In this document: piece after piece, positions 890 through 23,620 of the stretch | Layout of the letters: each line of letters starts with the position of its first letter | Position numbering within the stretch: the first letter of the stretch is position 1 | Source: an uncultured Gemmatimonadota bacterium | GTDB lineage: Bacteria; JAAXHH01 | Length of the DNA stretch: 64,000 nucleotides | Direction of reading: 5' to 3' | NCBI GenBank assembly: GCA_951812955.1 | Contig: OX638340.1 | Span: 2,528,001 to 2,592,000, forward strand | Position numbers and translations under genes: made by a program | Notes under the pieces: generated by a model | Database searches by the model: none | What the model saw: the letters and a program-made list of their open reading frames with translations, nothing else | What the model was told of the DNA's origin: nothing

Positions 890-2452
<1,563 letters not shown>

Positions 2453-2536
2453 AGTTATTGAAACTCGAGGTCGACTTGTCCGGCGCACGATGTGCACGCT
2501 GTCATGTTTTTAAAGTTGGGGGGCCTGTAGTACTGG

Positions 2537-2613
<77 letters not shown>

Positions 2614-2623
2614 TTGAAAGCCG

Positions 2624-2696
2624 GGGGATATAGCTCAGCTGGGAGAGCGCCGGCTTTGCAAGCCGGAGGTCACCGGTTCGATCCCGGTTATCTCCA
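2624..2696 (+). tRNA. tRNA-Ala: tRNA-Ala (anticodon TGC) in 16S-23S spacer
   Basis: ggggatatagctcagctgggagagcgc...ctttgcaag...ggttcgatcc...tatctcca. Has the G3:U70 identity pair. No encoded CCA. Confidence 0.95.
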
Positions 2697-2800
2697 CTGG
2701 GCACAGCAGACGAGTACAGGTGCCCGCTCTTTGACAATTACATAGGAATGACGGGAACGGCGTTGTAACATCGGAGCACTCAAGCACAGTAGCATTTTTT

Positions 2801-5866
<3,066 letters not shown>

Positions 5867-5921
5867 AATGCTCCAATTTATGTCGTCGTTCTCTCATTCC
5901 ATGTAATTGCCAACCCATTTC

Positions 5922-6040
5922 TTCCGGTGGCGATAGCGGAGGGGAAACACCTCTTCCCATTCCGAACAGAGTAGTTAAGCCCTCTTGCGCCGATGGTACT
6001 GCTTGGGTGACCTTGTGGGAGAGTAGGACGCTGCCGGGGG
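5922..6040 (+). rRNA. rrf: 5S ribosomal RNA
   Basis: tccggtggcgatagcggaggggaaacacc...ccgaacagagtagttaagcc...gcgccgatggtactg...gggagagtaggacgctgccggg. Confidence 0.9.
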
Positions 6041-6147: not shown

Positions 6148-6822
6148 TTACGCGGCGGTGTTTACAATGCGTCCGTCGAAGAGGCGGATGATCCGGTGGG
6201 CGTGATCGGCCAGAACCTGGTCGTGGGTCACCATGATGATGGTCGTGCCCGCCTCGTTGAGGCCGTTTAGCAGTTCCATGACCTCCGAGCCGTTGGCAGA
6301 ATCCAGGTTACCCGTCGGCTCATCCGCCAGGATCAGCTTGGGATTGCCGATGACCGCCCGCGCCACGGCTACGCGCTGTTGCTGGCCGCCGGAAAGCTGC
6401 TGCGGGAAGTGATTACGCCGGTGGGGGATCTGCATGTGGTCCATCGCCGCATCCACCCGTTCCTTGCGCTCCTGCTTGGACGTGCCCAGGTAGATCAGCG
6501 GAAGCTCGATGTTCTCGTAGACGGTCAGTTCGTCGATCAGGTTGAAGCTCTGGAACACGAAGCCGATGTTGTTCTTGCGCAGATTGGCTCTTTGCCGCTC
6601 GGAGTGGCCGGACACTTCCTGGTCCAGGAAATGGTATTCCCCGCCCGTAGGGTTGTCGAGAAGGCCGAGGATGTTGAGCAAGGTGGACTTGCCGCAACCC
6701 GACGGCCCCATGACCGCCACGAACTCGCCCTGGTCCACGGCCATGCTCACGTCGTTCAACGCCGTCGTCTCCACCTCTTCGGTCGCATAGAGTTTCTGCA
6801 AGTTGCTGGTCGCTATCATCAC
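6148..6822 (-). CDS. ABC transporter ATP-binding protein, MacB/LolD family (copy A)
   Basis: Walker A GPSGCGKST, Q-loop, signature LSGGQQQRVAVARA, Walker B ILADEPTGNLD, H-loop VTHD. About 95% aa and ~92% nt identical to 13626-14297. Confidence 0.9.
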   Translation of the reverse strand: MMIATSNLQKLYATEEVETTALNDVSMAVDQGEFVAVMGPSGCGKSTLLNILGLLDNPTGGEYHFLDQEVSGHSERQRANLRKNNIGFVFQSFNLIDELTVYENIELPLIYLGTSKQERKERVDAAMDHMQIPHRRNHFPQQLSGGQQQRVAVARAVIGNPKLILADEPTGNLDSANGSEVMELLNGLNEAGTTIIMVTHDQVLADHAHRIIRLFDGRIVNTAA

Positions 6823-7651: not shown

Positions 7652-8540
7652 CTACCGGCCCGTCACTTCGATTCGATTCCGGATGCCACGCGTGTAAGTC
7701 AGATGCCCGCGTCGGTCAATCCAGATCCCTTCGACGTGAGGCAAATCATCCAGTAACCGCTTTGAATTCTCGACTCCCATGACGTACGTCGCAGTCGCCA
7801 GGGCGTCCGCCGTCATGGCGTCCGGGGCGATGACCGTGGCGCTGAGCACGTGGTTCGATGAAACCCCCAGCCGTGGATTGAGAATGTGAGCGATACGAGG
7901 GCCCTGGTGCAGTCTATAGTTCTCATAGTCTCCTGCCTTCGCAATGGCCTCGTCTTCGAGTTCGACCATGGCGCATAGTGCATCCATCCGAGCGGTATGG
8001 TGAACGTATCCCGATGCGCCACAGGCGAGTAAGCTCGAGCCATCACAGGGCAAAGATGTCTCCTCCGGCCGAAACCAGGCCACATCGGACCCGGTGGTCC
8101 CGCAACGCCCCGACCGCCCGATCCACCATCTTGCCGATCTCCCTGATCCCGCCATCGGCTTCGAGGGCGACGAGCAATCGAACGTTGTTGCACACGGGAC
8201 AACGAAGATCCTCCTGTACCTCGTAAACGTACCCTACAGGATCGCCCTGTTCACCGAAAATCACGTAGCGGTCATATTCCCGAAAGTCCTCGTGCTTCCG
8301 GGATTCGGCCATGTGGAACGTAACCGAAACAAACTCCGAAACTGTCGGTTCATCGAGCGGTGGAAACAGGTTGGACATGCCGGCTAGCTCGTTTGACATC
8401 CTGTAAAGCGACGGGTCGGATCCGACTACATCGGTTCCGCCGGATCCCATGAGATAGATGAGATTCACGGCCACGACTACGGTGCCTGCTCCGGCGATCA
8501 ACACCACCGCCATTCGACTACGTTTCAAAAACTGCGCCAT
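7652..8540 (-). pseudogene. decayed fusion remnant: N-terminal part of FMN_bind-domain protein joined in frame to the C-terminal ~43% of ApbE, plus a frameshift
   Basis: ORF 8043-8540 aligns to the FMN_bind paralog (18779-19378) up to ...LLVALEADGGIREIG. It then continues directly as ApbE-like KMVDRAVGALRDHRVRCGLVSAGGD, matching ApbE residues ~170-195 of 17708-18709. The ITGATxSS flavinylation motif and the ApbE N-terminal half are missing. ORF 7652-8155 continues the ApbE C-terminus in another frame (frameshift near 8043-8070). Confidence 0.6.
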
Positions 8541-11040: not shown

Positions 11041-13503
11041 CTACGGTTCCAGGACAAGAAAGTTGACCGACTTGAAGACGCGCTGATCAGCGTGCCGGTC
11101 CGTCAGCGTCACGGTCAGCACATACTCCCCGGCTTCGAGATCCGTGGTGTCCATCGCGGTGTATTCAGCCTCTTCCGCTGAACTCCCCTCGCCTTCGAAG
11201 AAGGACATCACAGTCTGCATGTCGTCCGGCCTTCTGGCCCTGCGGTTCCTCAGTGCGGGCATGCCCAGGGGCGTGATTTCGTAAAGTGTCTCGTAGGAAG
11301 TGCGTCCGGCGTTGCCTAAATCCAGGTTGTACAATTCGTAGTAAACGTAAACGGGGTTTCCCCGAATGTAGAGCCGTCCCGGATTGGGCGTGATATTCAA
11401 CCCCTTGCGCACAAAGGGGCCCTGTACGCCTGACGGCGTGATGAGGGTGGCCAGCTTGAGATCGCTGATGAGCAGGTCGCGGCCGCGGTAGTCGGACAGC
11501 GTGACTGGCTTGCGATACACTCCGACCCGGCTCGTTGTCTCGTCCCGCACCTGGACTGCCAGCGTGAAACTACCCGACGGCGCGACAACGCTTTCAGGCA
11601 GGGTATACACCGGAACTTTCACGTTGCTTTCAGCCATCATACGCTTCGGCCTGTCGAAGGGACCGAAACCGAACTCGTGGGTGAACTGGGGGCTCATGGT
11701 CGAATCACGCAGGGTGACCAGGTGCGCGAGCCGGGTGCTGTTACCCCTGCCGTCCGAGACATCGCCGAACTGCCACACGGGGATGCTGTAGGACAGGTCC
11801 AGTTCCGTCGCGCCGTTGTCAGCCCTGTAGCTTACGGCGTCGAAGGCATATTCGAGTGGTTCTCCCCCGAAGTCGTGCAGGAATTCCTCGGGACTGCGCT
11901 TGATCAGGTTCTCGGCAACTCGTTGAGGATGATGGGTATCGTTTCGACGCATCAACTCGAAACCCGTGATGTCACCAAACGAATCCCCACCTTCATAGAT
12001 TGTCTGAAGTGGATAATCGAATTTCCCACCGCCCATCTGGTCCACGAAAAACAGTTCAAGATTATGCTGTACGTAAACCCAGCTTTCGACCTTGTACGAT
12101 TCTCCGACCAGACGTTTGAGTAACTCGAATGGATTGCTCTCCGACGAGCTCCCCCAGAGATCCACCGATCCCAAATCGAATCCCTGGAGCTGCATGATCT
12201 CCTCATCCAACAACGCCACCGGATCTCCCCTGCCCACCCGCAACACGTAGCCGGACTGCATATTCCGCACGCGTATTGCGTCCACGGCAGGAATCGCCGA
12301 CGGCTTGAAAACGGAAAAGGTGTTCCCATGCCTGCGCAGCAAGAAGTTGCTACGGTCATCCGGCGTACCGTATCGAACGTGAATCTCCCCGCGGCGGTCA
12401 AAGGGATACTGGCCCTCTGAGAAATGATTGCGGGCGTACAGTACGCGCCGGTAGTGTTCCACCAGGCGCTCGTTTTCGACGGTGGCCGGATTGGAATCCC
12501 GTGCGTTCCAGAAGGTCTGCCACAGCGCGTCGCGTTCCGGTCCTTCCACAGCCTCCCAGGTCTTCAATTCATCGGGAGGCGCGACATGTCGCAGGTCCCG
12601 GTACACCGCCTGCTCATCGGGATCGAGACCCGATATATAGGTCTCCAGGGCTTCCTGCAATCGATCGAACCCCCGTTCAGTCGAACCCGAAAGCATGCTG
12701 AACTGAAGCTGCAGGGTCCTGACCTCGTCCGCGACGGCATCTCCTGATTCTTCGACCAACTGTCCCAGGAGTTCAGCACCTATTTCGAACGCTTCGGCAC
12801 GAAGACACACATTGGTAAACCGCTCGAAGGCCCGACGGTGTTTGGGGTTTACCCGGTACTGGTTGAAATAGGCGGCTATCGCTTTTTCGTAGTCCGGCAA
12901 CGGGGGACTTTCATAACATCGTCCCAGTTGATAGTAGGCGTCCTCATGGGATGGATTCAGCTCTACGACCTTGAGGAAATACGTCCTGCCATCCCGGTCG
13001 CTGCCCACGATGGTATCTACTTTTTTATCATTCATGAAGGACATGCCCAGGTAGTACTGGGCGTCCGCGTTGTCCGGATCCAGGCGGATCGCGGTACGCA
13101 ACGCGTTGCGGGCATCCAGCTTTCTGTTTTGCAACTTCAGGTAGGTCTTCCCCAATCCGATGTGACCAGGCGCCCATTTTTTGTCCTGCCGCACTGCGCT
13201 CCTGAACGAACTCAACGCCTCACGGTAGTCGCCCAATTCATACCGCGCCATTCCGAGCCAGTAGTGGGCGGGCGCCGAATCCCCGTCAGCCTTGACGGCC
13301 ATTAGGAAGTACGGCAGCGCTTCCGCGTATCGTCCCTGTTGGTAAAGTGATTTGCCTTTTTCGTGGGCTGGCAGATCAATATCGGATACGGCCGATTGCG
13401 GCGGGGAAGTCCAGGTCTGGGAATGGCCGGGTAAACTCAGTGCAAGCGCGGCGATTGTAAGAAGCAGGCGGACGTACACGTAGTGCCTCTTTGGACGAAT
13501 CAA
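11041..13503 (-). CDS. secreted TPR-repeat protein with C-terminal GWxTD-like domain
   Basis: N-terminal signal peptide. Several TPR motifs (AHYWLGMARYELGDYREAL, AQYYLGMSF, AYYQLGRCY). The central segment RRGEIHVRYGTPDDRSNF resembles the GWxTD family. Abuts the permease gene. Confidence 0.6.
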   Translation of the reverse strand: MIRPKRHYVYVRLLLTIAALALSLPGHSQTWTSPPQSAVSDIDLPAHEKGKSLYQQGRYAEALPYFLMAVKADGDSAPAHYWLGMARYELGDYREALSSFRSAVRQDKKWAPGHIGLGKTYLKLQNRKLDARNALRTAIRLDPDNADAQYYLGMSFMNDKKVDTIVGSDRDGRTYFLKVVELNPSHEDAYYQLGRCYESPPLPDYEKAIAAYFNQYRVNPKHRRAFERFTNVCLRAEAFEIGAELLGQLVEESGDAVADEVRTLQLQFSMLSGSTERGFDRLQEALETYISGLDPDEQAVYRDLRHVAPPDELKTWEAVEGPERDALWQTFWNARDSNPATVENERLVEHYRRVLYARNHFSEGQYPFDRRGEIHVRYGTPDDRSNFLLRRHGNTFSVFKPSAIPAVDAIRVRNMQSGYVLRVGRGDPVALLDEEIMQLQGFDLGSVDLWGSSSESNPFELLKRLVGESYKVESWVYVQHNLELFFVDQMGGGKFDYPLQTIYEGGDSFGDITGFELMRRNDTHHPQRVAENLIKRSPEEFLHDFGGEPLEYAFDAVSYRADNGATELDLSYSIPVWQFGDVSDGRGNSTRLAHLVTLRDSTMSPQFTHEFGFGPFDRPKRMMAESNVKVPVYTLPESVVAPSGSFTLAVQVRDETTSRVGVYRKPVTLSDYRGRDLLISDLKLATLITPSGVQGPFVRKGLNITPNPGRLYIRGNPVYVYYELYNLDLGNAGRTSYETLYEITPLGMPALRNRRARRPDDMQTVMSFFEGEGSSAEEAEYTAMDTTDLEAGEYVLTVTLTDRHADQRVFKSVNFLVLEP

Positions 13504-13625: not shown

Positions 13626-14297
13626 TTACGCGGCCTCCGTCACGATCCGTCCGTCGAAGAGCCTGATGGTCCGGTGGGCGTGGTCGGCCAGCGCCTGGTC
13701 GTGGGTCACCATGATGATGGTCGTGCCCGCCTCGTTGAGGCCGTTGAGCAGTTCCATCACCTCGGCGCCGTTGGCCGAGTCCAGGTTACCCGTCGGCTCG
13801 TCCGCCAGGATCAGCCTGGGGTTGCCGATGACCGCCCGCGCCACGGCCACGCGCTGCTGCTGGCCGCCGGATAGCTGCTGCGGGAAGTGGTTCCGGCGGT
13901 GGGGGATCTGCATGTGCTCCATCGCCGCGTCCACCCGTTCCTTGCGCTCCTGCTTCGACGTGCCCAGGTAGATCAGCGGCAGTTCGATGTTCTCGTACAC
14001 GGTCAGCTCATCGATCAGGTTGAAGCTCTGGAAGACGAAGCCTATGTTGGCCTTGCGCAGGTTGGCGCGCTGCCGCTCGGAGTGGCCGGACACTTCCTGG
14101 TCCAGGAAATGGTACTCCCCGCCCGATGGATTGTCGAGGAGACCGAGGATGTTGAGCAGGGTGGACTTGCCGCAGCCCGAGGGTCCCATGACCGCCACGA
14201 ACTCGCCTTCGTCCACGGCCATGGTCACATCGTTCAGCGCCGTCGTCTCTACCTCTTCGGTCGCGTAGAGTTTCTTGAGATGTTCTGTCCTGATCAT
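13626..14297 (-). CDS. ABC transporter ATP-binding protein, MacB/LolD family (copy B)
   Basis: Start MIRTEHLKKLYATEEV (ATG ends at 14297) chosen by alignment with copy A. Same Walker A/B and signature motifs as copy A. Confidence 0.9.
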   Translation of the reverse strand: MIRTEHLKKLYATEEVETTALNDVTMAVDEGEFVAVMGPSGCGKSTLLNILGLLDNPSGGEYHFLDQEVSGHSERQRANLRKANIGFVFQSFNLIDELTVYENIELPLIYLGTSKQERKERVDAAMEHMQIPHRRNHFPQQLSGGQQQRVAVARAVIGNPRLILADEPTGNLDSANGAEVMELLNGLNEAGTTIIMVTHDQALADHAHRTIRLFDGRIVTEAA

Positions 14298-14446
14298 GGT
14301 GCGCTCCCGTAGTGTGGTAATACTCCGTATCCACGCATGCCATTTCGGAATCGTTCCTAATATCAAAGTAGCAAATGAAGAGGGTTGCAATTCCAGGTCG
14401 GAGAGATTAACTCCATAGATTGTGCGACTACGTTCATGCTGGAGAA

Positions 14447-16864
14447 TCACTCATACCTGAGCGCATCTACCGGGTTCAACGGTGCTTCTTTTGTAACATG
14501 GAAGGCAATCGTAGCGATGATTACTAACAGAATCCCCATGCTTACCAAGATGTAGAGGCTAAGGGGTGGAGAAACTCGATATGCGAAATCTTGTAACCAA
14601 ACGGCAGTAACCAAGTACGCCAACGGCCACGCTACCAGATTGGCGATCGCTGCCATAACTACAAACTGTCTAGACAGCAACTGAGTCAATTTCATAACTG
14701 TAGCACCCAGGGTCTTGCGTATGCCTAATTCCTTCGTTCTCTGTTTTGTGGTCAGGGAGACCAGGTTGAAAAGTCCCAGGAATGTCAAGATAGTAGCTAA
14801 GATGGTACAGACACCTATAAGCGAACCTAGACGTTTCTCCGGTACGTAAAGTCGATCAATATCGTCCTCCAAGAGGGAATAGATAAATGGAATTTCAGGA
14901 AAATAAGACTGCCAGGTAAGATCTAGGTAACTTAACGCAGATTCCATTTTCCCATCCTGAAAGCGCACCATCATGTGTTCGCCATTACCGTTCGTGAAAA
15001 CCATCGGTTCAACAGGCTGATAAGACGACCGGAAGTGGGCATCCGCAACGACACCTACAACCCTGCCTCGTTGGGTGATCTGAGGGTATACGATATCTAT
15101 CGTCTGGTCTACTGCTGACACTGGAGAAGTCCAACCTAGGTGGCGTACTGCCGTTTCGTTGAGAACAAGCTCGATTACGGGCAAAGGCCCAAAAGTCGAA
15201 TATGTAGCAAGACTCCTGTGCCTCAAAAAGCGTCCGTGTACCAGCTGTAAACCCAGTGTGTTTATGTAATCGTGCTCAACGCCCACAAATCGTACGGATC
15301 TGGAATTCCTCAGACTGTTTCCTGCCCGAGTTCGAACCATCCCATCACCCATTGTACCACGGGCAGGTTCAAGTGCCGGCACATAAGTTGAGAATGAAAC
15401 GCTGAGTACATCTGGCGATCTCAACATATCGTTTTTGAATCCGCTAGGTGGAACTAGTATTCCGCCTGGGAAGAAGCCTGTTATCAGGGGTACATTGACT
15501 ACATTTGATTCGTCAAAACCCTGGGGTTTGGTCAACATGTATTGAATCTGGATGTAGACCACGCAGGTGCTGATAATCAGAATAGTGGAGAGAGAAAACT
15601 GGATGATGATGAGCATCCGTTTCACCAGTGGAAAGTCCACTGAATGGCTGATTCTGTTTCCAAGAGAAAAGAGAGGGTGTACTCCTGACATAACCAAAGC
15701 CGGAAATCCTCCTGAAACGACTCCAACGATTATCGCAACGACAACTATCCCAAGCCAGATTCCAAAGTCTTCAGTAACGCCAAAAGAAAGCGTTTTACCT
15801 GTCAGCCAATTAAATGATGGCAGTGCAAGATAGGTCAAAATGAGAGCTAAAAACAAAACCAACATCACCATGGTTAAGGATGCAATCATATGCTGCCTGA
15901 TAATCTGAATTCGATCAGCACCGAAAATCTTAATCAAACCCACTTCCTTCATCTGATCAGCCGAATGAACCATAGACAGATTGACAAAATTGATTGAAGC
16001 GATGAGCAACAAGAAGATCGCACCTGAAATGAGCGCAAAGATGTAACTCACACTGCTATTCACCTCGAGTTCATTCAAAAGGCGGGAACGAAGGTGAATC
16101 TCCGTTAGTGGTTGAAGTATGAAACTATACTCCCGGATCCACGCGCTGTTGCTAGGTTTTACCGTTGATTCAAAATACCGCTGAAACTTGTCTTCGAGAA
16201 TTGAAGCCTGGTTACCTTCGTTCAACCGGACGTAGGTGTAATAGTCGGGACGCGACCAGTTGTCAATGTAGGATAGTTCATTGCCGAAACTCAGGAAGAA
16301 CCCAGCCTCGAAATGGGAGTTGACCGGGAAATCCTCCATTATCGCGGTAACGGTAAAATCCCATGTGTTGTCGGCTTGCAACACCTTACCGATGGGATCT
16401 TCCTCGCCAAAGTACTTTCTGGCGACTGACTCTGATATAACGACCTTGCCTATGCCATCCAACGCGTTGGTTTTGTTCCCCTTTACAAGTGGTATGGTAA
16501 AGACATCAAACAAGGAGGCTTCGGTCCAGTATACCTTATCTTCGTAAAAAGCACGATCACCGTACTGCATTAGCCAGATGGCCCTGGCCGCCCTTAAACG
16601 AACAGTACTTACAACTTCAGGAAAGTTCAGCTCAAGGGAACCTGAGGCGGCACCTGGAGTTCGGGCATTGGTGCCGTCAATCAATCGGAAGATCTCGTTG
16701 GCGTGTTCGTGGTGAGAATCGTATTTCAGTTCTTCCTGGATATACATCAGGGTTAAAATACACATAGCCATCCCGACAGTTATTCCGCTGATGTTTAATA
16801 TGGTATTGGATTTCTGCTTTAATAGTGCACGGGTGGAGATTTTCAGGTGGTGGGGTAGTTCCAT
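14447..16864 (-). CDS. ABC transporter permease, double FtsX-domain MacB-like (805 aa, copy B); low-GC
   Basis: Collinear with 8583-11027 over its whole length. About 47% GC, against ~62% for the flanks. Confidence 0.85.
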   Translation of the reverse strand: MELPHHLKISTRALLKQKSNTILNISGITVGMAMCILTLMYIQEELKYDSHHEHANEIFRLIDGTNARTPGAASGSLELNFPEVVSTVRLRAARAIWLMQYGDRAFYEDKVYWTEASLFDVFTIPLVKGNKTNALDGIGKVVISESVARKYFGEEDPIGKVLQADNTWDFTVTAIMEDFPVNSHFEAGFFLSFGNELSYIDNWSRPDYYTYVRLNEGNQASILEDKFQRYFESTVKPSNSAWIREYSFILQPLTEIHLRSRLLNELEVNSSVSYIFALISGAIFLLLIASINFVNLSMVHSADQMKEVGLIKIFGADRIQIIRQHMIASLTMVMLVLFLALILTYLALPSFNWLTGKTLSFGVTEDFGIWLGIVVVAIIVGVVSGGFPALVMSGVHPLFSLGNRISHSVDFPLVKRMLIIIQFSLSTILIISTCVVYIQIQYMLTKPQGFDESNVVNVPLITGFFPGGILVPPSGFKNDMLRSPDVLSVSFSTYVPALEPARGTMGDGMVRTRAGNSLRNSRSVRFVGVEHDYINTLGLQLVHGRFLRHRSLATYSTFGPLPVIELVLNETAVRHLGWTSPVSAVDQTIDIVYPQITQRGRVVGVVADAHFRSSYQPVEPMVFTNGNGEHMMVRFQDGKMESALSYLDLTWQSYFPEIPFIYSLLEDDIDRLYVPEKRLGSLIGVCTILATILTFLGLFNLVSLTTKQRTKELGIRKTLGATVMKLTQLLSRQFVVMAAIANLVAWPLAYLVTAVWLQDFAYRVSPPLSLYILVSMGILLVIIATIAFHVTKEAPLNPVDALRYE

Positions 16865-17226
16865 AACTGGCCTACAGATACTTAGTAAATGGTTCTAAGA
16901 GGGTTGTGATTAACGTCGAAGGGGCAGTTGAAAGTCTATAACTGCCTGTACGTTTAAACTCGTCCTCCGGTTTGATCAGCCCCAGACGTTCGCCGAGTGT
17001 TTTGGACTCGTCCACCACTGGCATTCAGCGAGGAGAGCATTTCCGTTGTCGGTGCGTGGAGCGTCGTTTGTTTTTTAACCTTGATGAATTCAATACCCAG
17101 ACGAAGTCGGTCAATCAACTCTTCCAACTGCTTGATTTGAATAGGCTAATAGAGGAAGTCACGGCGAAGGCTTCACTGGCAATATCGCGACTTTGATTCA
17201 GGTAGTTAATGTTGTCGTACGCATCT

Positions 17227-17400
17227 TAGTCTCCATGTGCGCTGTCAGGTTGGGTCTGTGACGGATTTTGTGTTACTGACTTTATCATGTTAAGGGCACT
17301 TTGTCTTCGTACATGATGATGAACTTGCTGGTGGCGGCCGTCCAGTTGGCGATGGGCCGTGTCTACCTTCGGGCCAGGTAGAGCAGTTTCCTGGCTACCC
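17227..17400 (-). mobile_element. IS256/mutator-family transposase C-terminal remnant (degraded, interrupted by stops)
   Basis: Minus-strand translation gives GVARKLLYLARR*TRPIANWTAATSKFIIMYEDKVPLN. This matches the conserved C-terminal LYLA.R....PI.NW..A.NqF.I.FedR block of IS256-family transposases. No intact ORF. Confidence 0.35.
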
Positions 17401-17707
17401 CGTCGGTGGGGAAGGCGCCGCCGCGCTATGGTCACCCCCAGTCTGCATGAGCACGTTCACCGCCCGTTACAATTCTGCTTCACATTGCATGGCGGCCAGC
17501 AATAGACTGGCAAAAGACGGTCAAAGGACAGGCGTAAACTTGTCGCTCTGAGTGCTATCCTTTACATAAACCTCTTCGACTCAGTCGTCTTCCACGGCTT
17601 CTTTATTCAGTCGACGTTTTCATCAAGCCCTTTAGATCCTCGTCGGTCTGTCTTGAAGCTACCGTGTATTTAACACCGCTCCCTTGTCATGAAGTACGAC
17701 CCACTCG

Positions 17708-18709
17708 TTAATTGACAATCTGCAATCTATTCTGGATCCCTCTTGTAAAAATAAACTGTCCATGCTGATCAATCCAGATCCCCTCGACGTATGGCATATC
17801 GTTCAGCAATCTCTGAGAACTTTCGATACCCATAACATAAGTCGCTGTGGCAAGCGCATCCGCTATCATTGCGTCGGGAGCGATAATCGTGGCGCTATGC
17901 ACGTGATCCGTCGAAGTCCCAAGTCGAGGATTGAGTATGTGTGTAATACGGCGACCTTGATTGATTTTGTAGTTTTCATAACCACCCGACGTCGCAACCG
18001 CCTCATCTTCGATTTCGACTGTGGCGCACAATGTATTGGGATGGTATGGAGACCGGATACCAATACGCCAAAGACGTTCAGGTTCTGGCCTTCCCATGGC
18101 AAGAACATCCCCACCTGCAGATATCAACCCGCATCTAATGTGGCGGTTTCGTAATACGTGAGCCATTCGATCCAATCCGTAACCTTTTGCTATTCCGCCA
18201 AAGTCTACCCCATAACCAGACGAAGCAATTCGTACTTTCTGTTCTTGCACTTGCAACTGATTAAAGTCTACCAGTTCGAGCATTTGCCGTAAGCTTCGAC
18301 TTGACGGATCACAATTATAAAATCCCCAGTGGTACATAATCGGTAGAATTGTCACATCGAAGGCACCATCTGTAATCTCGCCGATTCGTCTTGCTGTAGT
18401 CGCGACCTTGATAAAGTGGGGTGTTACGCCATGCCAAAGCCCATACATGTTGTTTACATGCGTAAGTTCACTGGTATTACGATAGAGGCTTAGCAGGCTG
18501 TCAATTTGAGCTAAAGCATCGAAGGCATCATAAATTGATTCTTTACTGTACTCGCATTCCTTGATTACAAGTTCTACTTTCGTCCCCATATGAATCTGAT
18601 GACGACGAACAAGCCTTTGCTTGTCTGACAATCCTGCGCCAAAATTGTATGGCACAAGTAACATTGCCGATGAAAGGCCGACCGATTTTATGAAATTGCG
18701 TCGCTTCAT
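17708..18709 (-). CDS. apbE: FAD:protein FMN transferase (ApbE family) with twin-arginine signal
   Basis: N-terminus MKRRNFIKSVGLSSAMLL has a Tat motif RRxFxK. ApbE-like blocks are present throughout (GIAKGYGLD, RCGLISAGGD, ADALATA). Low GC. Confidence 0.8.
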   Translation of the reverse strand: MKRRNFIKSVGLSSAMLLVPYNFGAGLSDKQRLVRRHQIHMGTKVELVIKECEYSKESIYDAFDALAQIDSLLSLYRNTSELTHVNNMYGLWHGVTPHFIKVATTARRIGEITDGAFDVTILPIMYHWGFYNCDPSSRSLRQMLELVDFNQLQVQEQKVRIASSGYGVDFGGIAKGYGLDRMAHVLRNRHIRCGLISAGGDVLAMGRPEPERLWRIGIRSPYHPNTLCATVEIEDEAVATSGGYENYKINQGRRITHILNPRLGTSTDHVHSATIIAPDAMIADALATATYVMGIESSQRLLNDMPYVEGIWIDQHGQFIFTRGIQNRLQIVN

Positions 18710-18778
18710 AGGGGCTATGCTATGATGGAATCTAGGACCATCTTTGTTTTCAAAAACAAGGCTACGTACAGAAAGCCC

Positions 18779-19378
18779 CTAACCTCGATGGATATGCCTA
18801 AGTCTATTGAGAGCATCAACAATATGAATCGAGCTTTTGGTAGCACCTGTGATTCCGTCGATATTTTCGCCTAATACGTAGAAATGTAGGTTCGGTTTCG
18901 ACTTAAATTGCCTCAGAAACCTCGTTTCATCCTCAACAGATAGTGGTTCACCGGAGAGTTCAAGGGGTTCAAGCACTCTGATATCATGGAGCCGACCCAA
19001 GTCATCGAGTGCGACGAGCATTCGGACGTTATTGCAAACAGGACATTTGAGATCCTCCTGTATTTCGTAGACGTAGCCAACAGTGTCGATTCGTTCGTCA
19101 AACACCACATATCGATCGTAACCTCTGAATTTCTCGTGTTTGCTAGAATAGCTTTCAGAGAAAGCGGATATAGTGAATTCCCTTAAGATACGATCGTCAA
19201 GTGGTGGGAATATGTCGGATGAAGTAATCGAACCACTTCCCGATCCCAAGTTCGACACGTGTGAGTAAATCACATCGTCATCACATGAATGTCCGGATAA
19301 GTAGACTATATTGACCACAGCAATTACTACTCCGGTTATAAGAAACATGGTTCTTTGAATGAGTTTGAAATTTCGCAT
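18779..19378 (-). CDS. membrane-anchored FMN-binding (FMN_bind) domain protein, predicted flavinylation substrate
   Basis: Start MRNFKLIQRTMFLITGVV (ATG ends at 19378) chosen by alignment to the copy-A paralog. N-terminal TM helix. C-terminal FMN_bind domain with flavinylation motif DGITGATKSS. CxxC (CPVCNN) within the domain. Confidence 0.7.
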   Translation of the reverse strand: MRNFKLIQRTMFLITGVVIAVVNIVYLSGHSCDDDVIYSHVSNLGSGSGSITSSDIFPPLDDRILREFTISAFSESYSSKHEKFRGYDRYVVFDERIDTVGYVYEIQEDLKCPVCNNVRMLVALDDLGRLHDIRVLEPLELSGEPLSVEDETRFLRQFKSKPNLHFYVLGENIDGITGATKSSIHIVDALNRLRHIHRG

Positions 19379-19515
19379 ACTACAACCGAACTCCATCTTC
19401 GTTTGAGCAGAAGAGGCCGAAGTTTGACTGGTTGTTCCTTGGGAGCCACGACATAGATTTGGGATTTCACTGACTGAACAGAATGTTGAGTTGAGGGGAG
19501 GCCGAGCCAATACAC

Positions 19516-19932
19516 TTATCTAAGGCGGAAGCTCATTGGAAAGTAGAATTGCGCAGATATAGGCTTTCCTTCCTTAGTCGCTGGCTTGAAAATCATCATT
19601 CGTGCTTGCGACAGTGCAAGACTATCTAGTTCTGGATGGGTCGACGATTCTATGATCGAAACAGATTCCACCGTGCCATCTGCCTTAGATCTTAAGAGAA
19701 GTACAACATCGCCTTCATTGCTGTACTTATCCTGTGGCGTGGGTCTAAACAATAGTCGTGGAGACGTATCCCAATCACCCACTTTAGCTATAACTTCAGT
19801 GTCAACTTGGGTTTCTTCCACCGGCACACTATCGTTCTCTACATTTCTGTCGTTACTGCAGGAGATGACTAACGAAAAGAGTACAATCTGGGACAGGCTG
19901 AATCGAAGCATTTGTGGAGCCCTTTCTGTCAT
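19516..19932 (-). CDS. TonB C-terminal-domain lipoprotein (copy B)
   Basis: Lipoprotein-type signal (..LFSLVISC, probable start at internal Met 19911). C-terminal segment GDVVLLLRSKADGTVESVSIIESSTHPELDSLALSQARMMIFKP is TonB_C-like. Paralog of 7015-7521. Confidence 0.6.
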   Translation of the reverse strand: MTERAPQMLRFSLSQIVLFSLVISCSNDRNVENDSVPVEETQVDTEVIAKVGDWDTSPRLLFRPTPQDKYSNEGDVVLLLRSKADGTVESVSIIESSTHPELDSLALSQARMMIFKPATKEGKPISAQFYFPMSFRLR

Positions 19933-20022
19933 ATGAGGTCGATTTCTGAACGCGAGGTAAATTCTGATTCATGTTCTAACTTTCAATGTGATTCAAAATC
20001 ACCAGTATAAGTTAAAACCTGA

Positions 20023-21735
20023 TCAATCGGGGCTATTGACCCGAGAAGTAAATCGAAAATTGTATTTAAATATCGTATTTTGGGGGACGATGAGTCGTGT
20101 TCCCATAGTGGGCATTAAACGAAACCTGCCTACAGACTCTAAGGCGATACTATCCAGTGCCGGATGTGCTGATGGTGTCTTTGTCCAAATCGAATCTACG
20201 ATACCATTTGAGTCGAAAAGTACGTTCACTGCAATTTCCATTTCGTCAAGATGACCGTACTCAAGAGGGAATGCACGACTCGTAGCCGTACCGAGGTGCA
20301 AGATTAGAGGTTCTTCATACGATGGCACAACATAGTCGTCAATGATCCCGTCGGTCACTAGTCGAATGTATTGGTCATATCCTTCCAAGGATCGCCAGGA
20401 ATCATCTTTTGTGAATCTGGCGATACTCTGTGCAAAAGATGTAAAAGGGAGGTCACCGATACGGCGAGGATGGGACATCATGTTGACGGATTGATTGTTG
20501 GCGTACGATCTGATAAAAAGACTCGATTCATCTATCGGCATGGAAGACACGTTATCGAAGTATCGTGTGAAAGTTGACCGGTCCGACCCGTTGGAATCAT
20601 GGGCTTCGGTGGACGGCATGTTAGTGAAGTATTGAGAGATATCAAATCGGTCTGACCCGCTGGATGCCTGCACTTCGCGATAGGTAGTTGTAGTCAGATA
20701 GTACTCCACATTTGAAACGTAGAATACGGAAATGGTCGCATCATGAGACCGGACGTAGTCTGATATACCACGCAAGGCTGTTTCACCGGCGAAATCACCT
20801 ACGACTGGAACGATCAAGTTCCTCCCGTGCAACTTCTTGACGACGTCAAATGCACTATCATCAGCAAGGAAGTTGGCTTGCTCCCCACTTATCGTTTCTG
20901 CAAGAATCAACTCCCGCAGACTCGGGAAATTAAAGGTTGCATCCCCCGGTGTTCCCAGATCGTACTGGATGTCTAACTGGCTCCTGAAGAAAGCCTGATA
21001 GACTCGTTCGACAGCTTTCATATCTTCCATCGAGTCTATGCCATACGAATGTAAATGGGACTTGATGACCCGGAGATTTCGCTCGTAGAGTTTTACATCG
21101 GGATCTATTCCGTCGAAATATGCGATCAGCGTTGCAACAGATGATTCACTTCGAGACCAGGGCCGGACCGGTCCTCCCTTAAATATCTCGGCCAGGTAGG
21201 AGAGATTCCGGTTCAATGGTTTGCTGAGCAGCCTAGACAGGAATTCAGCACTGTCGCTGGACTGAGCGAAGAGGGACTTGTAGATCAGGTGCAACAGCAT
21301 GTTATCGCGACGAATGTCAACCACGAAAGCCATGTGCGGCCTGGTCTCGGCGATGTAGGTAAAATTCTGTTCGGGGCCGACACCCACATAAACGCCACCG
21401 GAAACGTGCCGTTCGCGTAGTACGGCAAATGGATGCAGGTAAGAAGATTCGTTTGAGGTGAAATTGGTTGAATGAAAGGAGCCACCCGTCTCCGACAGTT
21501 CTCTAATCAGGTTCGAGAAGGCTGGCGTGGACAGTGAGTCCGGGAGGGCACCTGCTCTTGGATATGGCTTTACAGTCCTCTTGTTAGACCAATCAGAAGG
21601 ATTGTAACACTGGACTGCAAACAACATCACGACAACACCTGCCGTTATCCATGTTGTTGTTTTCCATATAACCATATCCGAGGATTTCCAAGCAGCTAAA
21701 GATTGACCTAAGTATTGTGAAAGTCTCTCAGCCAC
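20023..21735 (-). CDS. hypothetical membrane-anchored protein (570 aa) with C-terminal TonB_C-like domain
   Basis: N-terminal TM helix (WITAGVVVMLFAV). Large domain with a glycine-rich GVYVGVGPEQNFTYIA ... AFVVDIRRDNM segment. C-terminal ~80 aa (NGIVDSIWTKTPSAHPALDSIALESVGRFRLMP) resembles the TonB_C fold. Low GC. Confidence 0.5.
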   Translation of the reverse strand: MAERLSQYLGQSLAAWKSSDMVIWKTTTWITAGVVVMLFAVQCYNPSDWSNKRTVKPYPRAGALPDSLSTPAFSNLIRELSETGGSFHSTNFTSNESSYLHPFAVLRERHVSGGVYVGVGPEQNFTYIAETRPHMAFVVDIRRDNMLLHLIYKSLFAQSSDSAEFLSRLLSKPLNRNLSYLAEIFKGGPVRPWSRSESSVATLIAYFDGIDPDVKLYERNLRVIKSHLHSYGIDSMEDMKAVERVYQAFFRSQLDIQYDLGTPGDATFNFPSLRELILAETISGEQANFLADDSAFDVVKKLHGRNLIVPVVGDFAGETALRGISDYVRSHDATISVFYVSNVEYYLTTTTYREVQASSGSDRFDISQYFTNMPSTEAHDSNGSDRSTFTRYFDNVSSMPIDESSLFIRSYANNQSVNMMSHPRRIGDLPFTSFAQSIARFTKDDSWRSLEGYDQYIRLVTDGIIDDYVVPSYEEPLILHLGTATSRAFPLEYGHLDEMEIAVNVLFDSNGIVDSIWTKTPSAHPALDSIALESVGRFRLMPTMGTRLIVPQNTIFKYNFRFTSRVNSPD

Positions 21736-21771
21736 TTCTTTTGACTAAGAGACTCTCACGCCGGATCAGCC

Positions 21772-23055
21772 CTAACAACTTCTACCACCATTACAGTAAC
21801 AACCTACATAGCCCCACACATATGCATCCCCACAGTCATCATAATAACTACAATATACGCGATGGGCCAGGACCGCATAGGCAAAGGAGAAGGGCAACGC
21901 GCACTGCAACCCCACGTGGACGATTCGATCGAGCATCCAGACTATCACGGGTAGGGCTGGACCGGATGCCGGAACCAGACCCCAAGAGGACAGGAGCGTG
22001 CCGGGTTTCGTGATTGTCCACATCGGCGCGAGGATGAGGGCCAGGATGAATCCGGCCTCGATAATCTGGAGGCGTATGCGCTGTTGCTGGCTCGCCACGA
22101 AACGCTGGGCAATCAGTAGGCATCCTGTTAAGATAACAACGAGGAGAGGAAACATTGGAACGGGAATGGGCTCAACTATGCGGACGACGAACTGCGCAAT
22201 CTCATTATTCCAACCATGGGTGATGCTCAGTAAGTAGATCGAATGTAAGACTATCCACACAAAGAGAGGCGTCAGGATGAACAATGCTTTTTTTCGTAAC
22301 CATTCTCCAAAGACAGACGAACTTGGAAAAACAGTTAATATCTGAAAGATAAGAACAGTTTCCAGGATTGTTGCTAATACGACGATGTATATACTGAGCG
22401 ATAGTAACCAAACCGGCCATCCTGCGATCATGGGATGAAAGGCAGGAGACGATGTGAGCGCCGTAGCGAGGAAGAGCAACGCGCATCGAAAGGCGATGAC
22501 GTTTAGATGACTGCGGAATCCCATCCAAGTACCAAAACCTAACAGCACGATCGGGAAGATCAGAAAGGGTCCTCTTTGGAACCAGGTCATCTCCGCGACA
22601 CCCATCACAATCTCCTGCTGATCAACCTGTAGGGTGTAAGGTACCTCTTCGATCTCCTCAAGTGTCATGATACCGGTATGTATCCGATCTTCGCGAAGCC
22701 AGACGATTTCGATACGTTCTCCGGGTTGACTTTGCAAACGTGCCTGGAAATAGGCTTCTGGTCGTGATCTCAGGTCGATTCCATTTACCGATATGATCCG
22801 GTCGCCCGACTGTATTCCTGCCAGGTCGGCCGGACTTCCGTTCTCGATCTGTACTGCGATGATACCTTCGTCTTGGCGAATCCGGACGAGATGAAACCAC
22901 GTACCTTCCTGTAGATTGCTAACGGCGCTCTTCGTCAACCCCGGCGTTTGTATCATCTCGCTACCAAAAAATTGAATGCCGGGCGACCAGTGTTCGATCT
23001 GCGTGAATCGAACAAGTGTCCACGCCACCAGACCCAATTGCATGCATAGCAGCAA
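21772..23055 (-). CDS. PDZ-domain polytopic membrane protein with Cys-rich C-terminal tail
   Basis: N-terminal TM followed by a PDZ domain (GSPADLAGIQSGDRIISVNGIDL). About 8 predicted TM helices. Tail CSYYDDCGDAYVWGYVGCYCNGGRSC. Low GC. Confidence 0.5.
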   Translation of the reverse strand: MLLCMQLGLVAWTLVRFTQIEHWSPGIQFFGSEMIQTPGLTKSAVSNLQEGTWFHLVRIRQDEGIIAVQIENGSPADLAGIQSGDRIISVNGIDLRSRPEAYFQARLQSQPGERIEIVWLREDRIHTGIMTLEEIEEVPYTLQVDQQEIVMGVAEMTWFQRGPFLIFPIVLLGFGTWMGFRSHLNVIAFRCALLFLATALTSSPAFHPMIAGWPVWLLSLSIYIVVLATILETVLIFQILTVFPSSSVFGEWLRKKALFILTPLFVWIVLHSIYLLSITHGWNNEIAQFVVRIVEPIPVPMFPLLVVILTGCLLIAQRFVASQQQRIRLQIIEAGFILALILAPMWTITKPGTLLSSWGLVPASGPALPVIVWMLDRIVHVGLQCALPFSFAYAVLAHRVYCSYYDDCGDAYVWGYVGCYCNGGRSC

Positions 23056-23620
23056 GGCAAGTGTACAAACTATGAGATATCGATAGTTGAAAAACTTCAG
23101 TTGAGATCACCCCTGAGACTATGGACTGGATTCCGCAATACATGTTGCGTTGTGCCGACAATCGCCGTAAAGAGTTCAATTATAGACTATTCAGAGAAGA
23201 CGTGTCGGCAGCTTTGAAGAAATGTTACGAAACAGTAAGTGTCAAGAAAGTGCTGGTCACTGGTATTAGTCGTTACAAGGACCAGAACGAGGTCTTGTAG
23301 AAAATACTGGTCTAAACTAACACGGAATAGGAAAGGGAAGGTATTGCGAAACTATTGCTTGCGTTGTAGAACCGGCCATTCAACTCTGTGTGGTCGATTC
23401 AACCTGGCGGACCGCAGGTCGATTGGATTGTTCTTAAGGCTTTTTCAACTCGATTGTGTATCGTAGCCACGAGTTTTTAGCCGAAACAAAGCGACGCCCT
23501 TAAAACTTGACACCAGAAGCTGGATCGCAACATATTAGAGTTTTCCCGGTGAGTTGCCTTGTTTGAACTTTAAATGACTCGTAGAACGGAAGAGAGCGGT
23601 CCTGAAGAGGAGGAGTGTTC

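Follow-up and report, generated by a model that had tools for sequence, protein, structure and literature searches.

This study revealed that, of two adjacent ORFs in the DNA of an uncultured Gemmatimonadota bacterium, one encodes a secreted-type DUF7790 protein, while the other bears the marks of a deletion. We consider it likely (probability roughly 0.8) that positions 20023 to 23055 of the analyzed 64,000-nt stretch, hereafter called the window, hold one intact DUF7790 gene and one deletion scar, with the mechanism proposed below. The sequence data show the family memberships, the folds, the synteny, the breakpoint and which genes are missing, whereas the periplasmic location, the docking through TonB_C, the tie to the peptide and the remnant's loss of function are inferred. 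The deposited 423-427-aa "PDZ protein" is, on the sequence evidence, a deletion chimera and is unfit to seed a new family. For DUF7790, a large secreted family with a solved but unexplained structure, the locus provides the first contextual clues: a Rosetta-stone fusion to a putative docking domain of the TonB_C type, and a recurrent position with a Cys-rich peptide gene on one side and a MacB/ApbE/FMN_bind cassette on the other. Current knowledge is not overturned by these findings.

Genomic setting

A preliminary description of the locus had placed two ORFs at 20023-21735 and 21772-23055, in the orientation of cassette B and with its low GC content, and our ORF check agrees with it in each respect. 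Both are on the minus strand, as are the TonB_C, FMN_bind, ApbE, MacB and ABC ATPase genes. Island genes have GC3 values of 0.43-0.56, versus approximately 0.64-0.86 for most long ORFs outside the rRNA operon. Signs of cassette decay are also seen nearby, where an MFP pseudogene occupies 16953-17601, and cassette A contains an FMN_bind::ApbE deletion, a second deletion chimera. The features of the interval are given in Table 1.

Table 1. Features of the interval and of the neighboring lipoprotein gene
Feature	Position	Strand	Remarks
TonB_C lipoprotein (neighbor)	19516..19932	-	Pfam TonB_C 42 bits, cut-off 24.6
DUF7790-TonB_C protein	20023..21675	-	550 aa from probable start ATG 21675; mechanical ORF up to GTG 21735
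C-terminal TonB_C-like domain	20041..20298	-	in DUF7790 protein
DUF7790 core	20341..21543	-	methyltransferase-like Rossmann fold with helical insertions; invariant GVGxEQN, DIRR, GDFAG, YxSNVE
N-terminal signal/anchor segment MVIWKTTTWITAGVVVMLFAVQC	21607..21675	-	from hydropathy; ends in clade-conserved Cys
18-bp RNA stem-loop	21717..21759	-	between peptide-gene stop and DUF7790 start; contains GTG 21735
3' remnant of Cys-rich peptide gene	21772..21854	-	last 26 codons and stop; now tail of 427-aa ORF
Truncated PDZ-polytopic sensor histidine kinase	21855..23055	-	5' 401 codons; lacks GAF-like region, HisKA_3 and HATPase_c
Polytopic membrane block	21868..22572	-	residues 162-396; about 8 hydrophobic segments (Kyte-Doolittle scan)
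PDZ domain	22681..22911	-	residues 49-125; PDZ_6, PDZ and PDZ_2 models

The DUF7790 protein

The 550-aa form of the DUF7790 protein is 100% identical to the database protein P0001. It matches Pfam DUF7790 (PF25046) with 106.4 bits (cut-off 23, E 2.2e-30). The protein had been described as island-specific, which proved incorrect: 3454 homologues matched it, PF25046 was present in 120 out of 120 of those among the matches listed, and at least 591 genome loci, mostly from Acidobacteriota, were confirmed. The equivalog model NF047518 (LIC_10091 family lipoprotein) gave 53.1 bits, far from its cut-off of 350, and the window protein is a distant relative rather than an orthologue.

With regard to the fold, the protein resembles PDB entry 6ULO, a solved member of the family: the fold is the same (AF2 model, pLDDT 79), a profile search matches 6ULO with an E value of 2.6e-20, and the motifs VYVGVGxEQN and SNxEEY are common to both. 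A Rossmann-type seven-strand methyltransferase core is present in the DUF7790 domain. The motif GGVYVGVGPEQNFTYIA...AFVVDIRRDNM lies in the best-conserved part of the family, where G98, V99, G100, E102, Q103, N104, D120, I121, R122 and R123 are invariant among 52 homologues. The motif I signature GxGxG is absent, the loop reading GVGPEQN, and none of the Methyltransf_* Pfam models matched the protein at E <= 0.1. The fold of the core is of the Rossmann type found in class-I methyltransferases, but diverged, with an invariant set of polar residues of its own. The glycine-rich segment of the preliminary description is present; a use of SAM is doubtful, given that the family is secreted, with signal-like N-termini in 106 of 114 members.

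Within the clade, the N-terminal hydrophobic stretch always closes with x-[QRH]-C (FAVQC, ADRC, AVHC). Compared with the lipobox [LVI][ASTVI][GAS]C, the Cys following the hydrophobic segment is kept, but the residue at -1 is Q, R or H, which makes a canonical lipobox doubtful. These N-termini suggest that the protein is extracytoplasmic and tethered at its N-terminus.

The DUF7790 protein of this clade has in addition gained a C-terminal TonB_C-type domain, which duplicates the fold of the adjacent lipoprotein. Although this tail is below the thresholds of both models (Pfam, 16 bits vs 24.6; TIGR01352, 17.7 bits vs 27.1), it shows the fold of the TonB C-terminal domain and is homologous to the domain of the genuine TonB_C lipoprotein next door, which bears out the earlier proposal of a second TonB_C-like module beside the lipoprotein gene. 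The long form with the tail (516-553 aa) was found only in the 11 closest clusters among the matches listed.

A truncated sensor kinase joined to a peptide remnant

The layout reported for the second ORF, namely one TM segment, a PDZ domain, about eight further TM segments and a Cys-rich tail, was recovered in full. A hydrophobic segment precedes the PDZ domain, which was detected by PDZ_6 (45.4 bits vs 27, E 6.5e-12), PDZ (31.8 vs 23.2, E 1.9e-7) and PDZ_2 (29.6 vs 27, E 8.9e-7), and which is predicted to be extracytoplasmic, between this segment and the polytopic block. The AF2 model of the block is helical, at low confidence.

Residues 1-401 are collinear with the 873-aa P0139 (81% identity over that part alone) and with the 890-aa P0142 (60% identity). 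P0139 comprises PDZ, GAF (weak), HisKA_3 and HATPase_c domains, the last two being shared by the orthologues P0142 and P0143. Relatives covering the PDZ and polytopic module are 857-1045 aa long, and nine of the ten tested possess a kinase or SpoIIE output. In the window ORF, PDZ is the sole Pfam domain found and HisKA_3 and HATPase_c are absent; a window-wide tblastn search gave no match for the kinase core, the response regulators, the CxxC gene or the 177-aa gene. The first 401 codons are free of stops and frameshifts, and the homologues part from the ORF right after ...AYAVLAHRV (residue 401).

The 26 residues that follow belong to another gene. At 24 positions they agree with the C-terminus of the 82-aa P0131, which has a gene of its own, and at 14 positions with an 85-aa ORF of the related locus L007 (tblastn), including all Cys and the terminal NGGxSC-stop; an HMM of the peptide family matches the remnant with an E value of 1.2e-6. 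The intact peptide is small and signal-peptide-bearing; its leader is conserved (...LNLxAxxDWxVPxIGI...) and it ends in CxCNGGxSC. P0131 matched no family in Pfam, NCBIfam or PADLOC and no RiPP or bacteriocin family, and no known RiPP enzyme was found in the peptide loci.

The junction reads ...CAT CGC GTA|TAT TGT AGT..., with a GTA microhomology and imperfect similarity on its flanks, and it joins kinase codon 401 in frame to codon 57 of the 82-aa peptide gene. Downwards from 21854, the window shares 98.2-99.8% identity with four independent contigs (L088-L091) that come from other samples; above this position they are unrelated to it, and they carry an intact P0131. Judging from these alignments, the 427-aa ORF is a chimera in which an in-frame deletion of approximately 5 kb joined the front of the kinase to the end of the peptide gene. 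What was lost comprises the core of the kinase, two response regulators of the NarL/LuxR type, a gene of 177-179 aa that matches no family, the CxxC (thioredoxin-like) gene and the 5' end of the peptide gene, encoding its signal and leader region. As a result, the cassette of this genome is devoid of its dedicated two-component regulator and of the peptide.

The 427-aa ORF, annotated as protein P0121 in the source assembly, could instead be a genuine stand-alone PDZ-polytopic envelope sensor with a functional Cys-rich tail, for example for metal or redox sensing. The ORF is indeed uninterrupted, its PDZ domain is real and the fusion is in frame, but we regard this reading as highly implausible: no second protein of such architecture was found, all homologues diverging at residue 401, the tail is nearly that of P0131, and the relatives covering the module are far longer and carry output domains. 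The sensor proposed in the preliminary description is hence real as an input module, as the kinase homologues indicate, but its Cys-rich tail architecture is not native. It had also been proposed as a regulatory component; given that this copy has no output domain and that its genome contains no cognate response regulators, the PDZ remnant cannot fill that role. It is most likely non-functional, although the truncated PDZ-membrane protein may still play some residual part.

We also considered that the junction at 21854/21855 might be a metagenome mis-join between the cassette strain and another locus, in which case the chimera would exist in no cell. The four contigs, which match up to exactly 21854 (98-99.8% identity) and then differ, are compatible with such an error, as is the gentle shift in composition across the junction. 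Moreover, the sequences upstream of 21854 are variable: L089 has an IS (DDE_Tnp_1) there, L091 an ISL3-like transposase, and such strain heterogeneity can confuse assemblers. Nevertheless, a mis-join is quite unlikely, since an in-frame join at a short microhomology is what illegitimate recombination is expected to leave, and the assembly, a contig of 3.8 Mb, is of chromosome scale. In addition, an 81%-identical relative, L094, has its cassette at the same EF-G-adjacent site. There, EF-G directly abuts DUF7790 and homology begins at window position 21801, which represents a nested, larger deletion. This nested deletion at the same chromosomal site indicates that the PDZ kinase and the cassette belong together at the locus, as they do in L001 and L007.

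In this lineage, the low-GC cassettes belong to the portion of the genome that undergoes rearrangement and decay, as is evident from three different upstream truncations at >98% identity, the MFP pseudogene and the cassette A chimera.

Gene neighborhoods in relatives

The gene order in relatives shows what the locus may have contained. L001 comprises a PDZ-HK gene, two response regulators, a gene of 179 aa that matches no family, a TonB_C-like 288-aa protein, the CxxC gene, the peptide, DUF7790, TonB_C, TPR and MacB. In L007, the PDZ-HK gene is followed by two response regulators, a gene of 177 aa, likewise matching no family, the CxxC gene, the peptide, DUF7790-long, TonB_C, MacB, FMN_bind, ApbE and MFP, whereas L009 presents the CxxC gene, two peptide genes, DUF7790, TonB_C, MacB, FMN_bind, ApbE, MFP and an ATPase. 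A shorter order, with a 144-240-aa lipoprotein, DUF7790-long and MacB, is found in L003, L004 and L006. In this lineage, DUF7790 and the TonB_C lipoprotein are conserved partners: the adjoining gene is assigned by Pfam TonB_C in L001 and L007 and by a phmmer match to the window lipoprotein in L009, while the upstream lipoprotein of L003, L004 and L006 is TonB_C-like by inspection only and has no Pfam match.

The peptide gene directly precedes DUF7790 in every intact locus, at a distance of 10-233 bp in L009, L088, L007 and L001. This link comes from four divergent loci only, and a metagenome scan found no further ones. The stem-loop between the two genes has an MFE of -28.2 kcal/mol (z -6.9), and none of 200 shuffled sequences folded as well. 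It is kept in L094 and L007, with three pairs maintained through changes on both sides, and is absent from L001 and L009.

Both genes had been suggested as possible regulatory or accessory components of the cassette. Within this lineage, synteny of both with the ApbE/FMN_bind/MacB cassette is seen in the independent relatives L001, L007 and L009, and DUF7790 lies beside TonB_C and MacB genes, in some cases also with FMN_bind and ApbE. Outside this lineage, however, DUF7790 has no conserved neighbors: of 80 loci, 7 had MacB at a distance of up to 1.5 kb, and among the 70-76 flanking genes each Pfam family occurred four times at most. Its association with the cassette may thus be a habit of this lineage, with no functional need behind it.

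Proposed mechanism

We propose that the DUF7790 protein would act as an enzyme or ligand-binding module facing the periplasm. Its TonB_C domain may dock it to a partner from the cassette, which could be the TonB_C lipoprotein, the MacB-type ABC pump, the flavinylated FMN_bind protein or ApbE. The likeliest substrate or partner would be the small Cys-rich secreted peptide encoded by the preceding gene.

More speculatively, the ancestral locus of this uncultured lineage could have been a periplasmic system of a new type for peptide maturation and autoinduction, of which the window would hold a recently inactivated copy. A disulfide-rich peptide would be handled by the DUF7790 enzyme, itself docked through TonB_C modules to a pump of the MacB type as well as to a redox pair (flavinylated/thioredoxin-like), and the PDZ domain of the kinase would sense the free C-terminus of the peptide. 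We hold this extended scheme to be improbable in its entirety.

DUF7790 might also be an active SAM-dependent methyltransferase of the Cys-rich peptide or of another exported product, the cassette being a RiPP- or bacteriocin-like locus for biosynthesis, export and immunity under two-component control. The methyltransferase-like fold, with its Gly-rich loop and the acidic end of strand 2, the proximity of the peptide gene and the conserved hairpin after it would be in keeping with this; such hairpins occur in many precursor-peptide operons. The ABC ATPase and the permease also resemble darobactin and lactococcin-972 export models, below cut-offs. Yet the family is secreted, and a periplasmic supply of SAM is not known. 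The loop also departs from GxGxG, most DUF7790 genes have no peptide or transporter neighbor, and the peptide matched no RiPP or bacteriocin family. A methyltransferase of this kind is accordingly rather unlikely, and we retain the docked periplasmic module as the preferred reading.

Comparison with known systems

The closest known relatives form the LIC_10091 (LipL40) family of Leptospira interrogans, represented by 6ULO, which belongs to the same Pfam family, shares its motifs and, like the window protein, is secreted or lipid-anchored. LipL40 has been described only as a putative lipoprotein (PMC2889836, PMC2935396). The identity to the window protein is only 21%, and the NF047518 score is 53 vs 350; the window protein also differs by approximately 100 extra C-terminal residues (TonB_C-like) and by its setting in a transporter/flavinylation cassette.

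Class I SAM methyltransferases (METTL18, 4RFQ; INMT, 2A14; PNMT, 6WS1) are 5-12% identical to the DUF7790 protein. In contrast to these, it has the GVGPEQN loop instead of GxGxG and no methyltransferase Pfam match, and its family bears signal peptides and is extracytoplasmic, where SAM is unexpected.

The tail, in turn, resembles the TonB C-terminal domain (PF03544) through the adjacent lipoprotein. Unlike in TonB, visual inspection of the translation and of the model showed neither a proline-rich spacer nor an ExbBD-coupled N-terminal anchor, the region from anchor to tail being the folded DUF7790 domain. As the tail is attached to an enzyme-like domain, it is more likely to be a docking module than an energy transducer.

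The PDZ and polytopic module is shared with HisKA_3 kinases (NarX/LiaS/UhpB-class) with a periplasmic PDZ domain and with PDZ-polytopic-GAF-SpoIIE phosphatases. Compared with the kinases, the window copy has lost the last membrane helices along with the GAF-like region, HisKA_3 and HATPase_c, and closes with 26 residues of foreign origin; the window also lacks the cognate NarL-type regulators.

Finally, the cassettes can be compared with flavinylation clusters (DUF4266, P19), among which P19 clusters occur with FMN-binding or thioredoxin-like genes (PMC8238504, Meheust et al. 2021). By analogy with P19/Fet-type iron systems and with DsbD/DUF3570/DUF4266 flavinylation clusters, the cassette might be an extracytoplasmic redox relay, made up of the flavinylated FMN_bind protein, ApbE, the CxxC thioredoxin-like protein and the small Cys-rich protein, and coupled to a MacB-type ABC machine with DUF7790-TonB_C as its substrate-handling partner. 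This remains doubtful: no homologue of P19, Ftr1, DsbD, DUF3570 or DUF4266 was detected, a MacB-type pump, TonB_C modules and DUF7790 being present instead, FtsX/MacB or efflux-linked clusters are not reported in that study (0 occurrences), and assigning DUF7790 a part in such a relay is purely conjectural. On the other hand, FMN_bind has a TGAT flavinylation-type motif (as defined in PMC8238504), ApbE scores 242 bits, and the intact loci contain a CxxC gene, judged thioredoxin-like on inspection, together with a small secreted Cys-rich protein whose C-terminal CxC...C is conserved. Thioredoxin-like proteins occur in the published clusters alongside a CXC protein that is small and secreted, and the cassettes of the relatives likewise combine ApbE, an FMN_bind substrate and a CxxC protein with a small secreted Cys-rich protein bearing a conserved C-terminal Cys motif.

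Results

Both open reading frames of the preliminary description, the DUF7790-TonB_C gene (ORF 1) and the 427-aa PDZ-polytopic ORF (ORF 2), are present and lie on the minus strand, where they head a co-oriented gene run (see the table). Their shared orientation and low GC with cassette B, the downstream TonB_C/FMN_bind/ApbE/MacB/ATPase run of the same island, are borne out by the ORF map, by GC (44-50% over ~14450-23500 against 53-67% across most of the window) and by GC3 (0.43-0.56 for the island genes against ~0.64-0.86 in most long ORFs outside the rRNA operon). As the homologous cassettes show the same GC drop in every relative examined, low GC belongs to these cassettes generally and not just to the window copy. 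A repeat search found no flanking repeats around the island, a promoter and terminator scan gave background level only, and PADLOC returned no defence-system match. The complete rRNA operon directly adjoins cassette A, the second such cassette, at lower window coordinates.

Coordinates of the features discussed (window positions, or contig positions where a relative's locus is named)
Feature	Locus	Position	Strand	Remarks
rRNA operon	window	890-6039	+	16S, tRNA-Ile, tRNA-Ala, 23S, 5S
MacB-type ABC ATPase copy	window	6151-6819	-	
FMN_bind/ApbE chimera	window	7661-8540	-	cassette A
TPR protein	window	11041-13503	-	co-oriented run
ABC ATPase	window	13626-14450	-	co-oriented run
MacB-type ABC ATPase copy	window	13629-14297	-	
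MacB/FtsX permease	window	14447-16864	-	co-oriented run
Gap between ApbE and MacB/FtsX permease	window			840 bp
MFP fragments in this gap	window	16953-17601	-	HlyD-type, two reading frames
ApbE	window	17708-18709	-	co-oriented run
FMN_bind	window	18779-19510	-	co-oriented run
TonB_C lipoprotein	window	19516-19932	-	co-oriented run
ORF 1	window	20023-21735	-	570 aa, GTG start
Stem-loop, 18 bp	window	21717-21759	-	between peptide-remnant stop and DUF7790 start
Stem-loop	L094	9869-9911		
Stem-loop	L007	6710-6754		
ORF 2	window	21772-23055	-	427 aa, TTG start
Cys-rich peptide gene	L088	986-1234		
Cys-rich peptide gene	L007	6432-6689		
Cys-rich peptide gene	L001	16693-16935		uncalled
Cys-rich peptide genes	L009	9626-9871, 10287-10535		
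Kinase core	L001, L007			~5-kb interval
Two NarL/LuxR-type response regulators	L001, L007			~5-kb interval
177-179-aa gene	L001, L007			~5-kb interval; no family matches
Membrane-anchored CxxC gene	L001, L007			~5-kb interval; thioredoxin-like by eye, unmatched in Pfam and NCBIfam
288-aa TonB_C-like protein	L001	15051-15917		~5-kb interval, L001 only; Pfam match just above threshold
735-aa protein	L003	15483-17690		weak TonB_C match at its end (Pfam, E 0.0018, below threshold)
240-aa lipoprotein	L006	9223-9945		two TonB_C-like repeats by eye
IS element (DDE_Tnp_1)	L089	1967-2911		directly upstream of N-terminally truncated CxxC gene
ISL3-like transposase	L091	1-912	-	directly upstream of peptide gene

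ORF 2 is a deletion scar

ORF 2 had been described as a PDZ-polytopic protein with a Cys-rich tail. The PDZ domain (Pfam) and about eight more hydrophobic segments (hydropathy) are genuine, but the tail is not a native part of the protein. All relatives cease to resemble ORF 2 past ...AYAVLAHRV, and the intact orthologue P0139 (873 aa) matches residues 1-401 only, at 81% identity, before continuing into two more membrane helices, a GAF-like region, HisKA_3 and HATPase_c. In an exhaustive HMMER scan, proteins with the PDZ and polytopic module spanned 857-1045 aa. An output domain was present in nine of the ten module-bearing relatives tested, with HisKA_3 and HATPase_c in the closest and GAF and SpoIIE in the more distant ones. 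An AlphaFold2 model of the 427-aa ORF, built on an 8-sequence alignment, reached a pLDDT of 51, too low for a fold search.

The remaining 26 residues, CSYYDDCGDAYVWGYVGCYCNGGRSC followed by the stop, have their match at the C-terminal end of a different, small gene. In the divergent locus L007 its counterpart, an 85-aa ORF, directly precedes DUF7790; 14 of 26 positions are identical, among them all Cys and the NGGxSC-stop end. In the metagenome contigs L088-L093, whose DUF7790 allele is 100% identical to that of the window, the source gene of the tail is intact and encodes P0131 (82 aa). The peptides of this family, of ~82 aa, bear a signal-type leader (...LNLxAxxDWxVPxIGIxxAxA) followed by 6-8 Cys, often with a CxCNGGxSC end, and their C-terminus is conserved. 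Each peptide gene found lies directly upstream of DUF7790, at a distance of 10-233 bp in four divergent loci, and L009 carries two in tandem. The family has no match in Pfam, NCBIfam or PADLOC; a protein word search for further homologues gave two clusters and a metagenome scan an already known contig only, the 7-sequence alignment being too divergent for use as a query.

Four of the L088-L093 contigs, which derive from different samples, match the window at 98.2-99.8% identity from 21854 down, the longest of them to position 13033. Above 21854 they show no similarity to the compared 13-24 kb stretch, despite 1.0-4.0 kb more sequence. The junction (...GCC CAT CGC GTA/TAT TGT AGT TAT...) is in frame and lies at a GTA microhomology, inside a patch of imperfect similarity between both parental sequences. 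Kinase and peptide gene are ~5 kb apart in L001 and L007, where the locus is intact; neither the kinase core nor the regulators, the 177-179-aa, 288-aa and CxxC genes of this interval are detectable anywhere in the window. The 427-aa ORF is a deletion scar and represents no protein family.

In L094, an 81%-identical relative, EF-G directly adjoins DUF7790 and homology begins at window position 21801, which marks a nested deletion of greater extent at the same site of the chromosome. Insertion sequences lie upstream of the islands of L089 and L091, which are more than 99% identical to that of the window; together with the window, these contigs show that a single population harbours three distinct truncations on the upstream side. 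The arrangements in L094, L089 and L091 identify the region upstream of DUF7790 as a rearrangement hot spot.

ORF 1 is a DUF7790 protein with a TonB_C-like tail

Residues 93-351 of ORF 1 constitute a DUF7790 domain (PF25046; 106 bits, cut-off 23), and the match to the NCBIfam LIC_10091 family is weak (53 bits against 350). DUF7790 is a large family, with 3454 matches at E <= 1e-3 and at least 591 confirmed loci in reference genomes; the loci listed are mostly from Acidobacteriota/Blastocatellia, with some from Gemmatimonadota and Latescibacterota. From sequence, the DUF7790 profile found 6ULO, the crystal structure of a Leptospira family member (E 2.6e-20), with the motifs VYVGVGxEQN and SNxEEY common to both. 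A 52-sequence alignment revealed many invariant polar residues (N71, N75, E76, Y79, G98-V-G100, E102-Q-N104, D120-I-R-R123, H129, K133, D218, G293-x-F-x-G297, Y319-x-S-N-V-E324, R389, H402).

The glycine-rich motif, earlier read as a Rossmann-like nucleotide- or SAM-binding loop, sits among these invariant residues. That reading holds at the level of the fold; the use of SAM is doubtful, since 106 of 114 members carry a signal-like hydrophobic N-terminus, which in the clade of the window protein closes with a conserved Cys (FAVQC). SAM is not expected in the periplasm, and these N-termini indicate that the ORF 1 protein most likely faces it.

The TonB_C-like nature of the C-terminus is supported by homology (28% over 54 aa, E 3e-5) to the lipoprotein of the next gene downstream; the Pfam match (residues 501-562) is sub-threshold, and tblastn with the relatives' lipoproteins also picks up the tail. 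Among the matches listed, the tail is confined to the 11 closest clusters (516-553 aa), other members being ~400 aa long. The fusion in one clade, with a separate TonB_C gene still adjacent, is a Rosetta-stone hint of joint action. A TonB energy transducer was set aside by eye, as the translation has no Pro-rich spacer and a folded domain precedes the tail. TonB_C-like modules turn up repeatedly in other cassette proteins of relatives.

The stem-loop 5' of DUF7790 is stable (MFE -28.2 kcal/mol, z -6.9) and is kept in L094 and L007, three base pairs being preserved via changes on both sides among these two loci and the window. The peptide genes of L001 and L009 are not followed by a similar hairpin. 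The stem-loop has no U-tract, which makes it unlike a canonical terminator, and we infer a role as intercistronic stabiliser or attenuator. The GTG (21735) of the mechanical ORF 1 call falls inside this conserved hairpin, so the likely start is ATG 21675, giving the 550-aa database protein P0001.

Linkage of DUF7790 to the cassette

A TonB_C lipoprotein gene follows DUF7790 in the window, L001, L007 and L009. In the divergent loci L003, L004 and L006, a 144-240-aa lipoprotein gene, TonB_C-like by eye and with no Pfam match, precedes it. An 800-aa MacB-type permease adjoins or lies near DUF7790 in all seven; FMN_bind, ApbE and an HlyD-type adaptor are nearby in L007 and L009, as is the ABC ATPase in L009. 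The link of DUF7790 to the cassette is therefore well supported within this unclassified, uncultured lineage, but does not extend outside it. Across 80 genome loci surveyed there, a MacB-like gene lay within 1.5 kb of DUF7790 in seven and homologues of the window TonB_C, FMN_bind and ApbE were almost never beside it, which rules out a general association; no Pfam family recurred in more than four of 70-76 flanking genes.

The two ATPase copies have a host-like GC3 (0.81-0.84), and their protein identity to the L009 ATPase is 97% and 94%, other L009 cassette genes reaching ~50-63%; this ATPase is either far better conserved than its partners or homogenised. The HlyD-type membrane-fusion protein (MFP) fragments correspond to residues 105-158, 224-278 and 277-297 of a 444-aa relative and constitute a pseudogene, present in the near-identical contigs too. 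Cassette A contains a second deletion chimera, joining FMN_bind 1-131 to ApbE ~178-339 with a frame change; the join removes the flavinylation site as well as the N-terminal half of ApbE.

Discussion

With sensor, regulators and peptide lost and the MFP (adaptor) gene a pseudogene, the window copy of the cassette is partly decayed. The DUF7790-TonB_C protein is most likely tethered to the membrane and faces the periplasm, as an enzyme or binding module that would dock to a cassette partner by its TonB_C domain, and the small Cys-rich secreted peptide would be its best candidate substrate or partner. The PDZ kinase was probably the dedicated sensor of the cassette. PDZ domains typically bind free C-termini, which, together with the conserved C-terminus of the peptide, suggests a possible autoinduction loop of kinase and peptide.

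Our reading of cassette function is contextual, drawn from gene content. The cassette may be a locus for peptide maturation, export and immunity, or it may be a flavin/thiol redox relay, analogous to the clusters of PMC8238504. The membrane-anchored FMN_bind protein carries a TGAT that fits the flavinylation motif [S/T]GA[S/T], consistent with a substrate of the adjacent ApbE. A link between ApbE and MacB was not found in the flavinylation papers searched, and the surrounding cassette appears undescribed so far.

We found no literature on DUF7790 or 6ULO. Leptospira LIC10091 (LipL40) is described merely as a putative lipoprotein, serving as a control or plasminogen-binding candidate (PMC2889836, PMC2935396). 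ORF 1 belongs to a known, uncharacterised family and represents a variant of its domain architecture. ORF 2 represents a known kind of sensor kinase, the HisKA_3 type, in truncated form and with a foreign tail.
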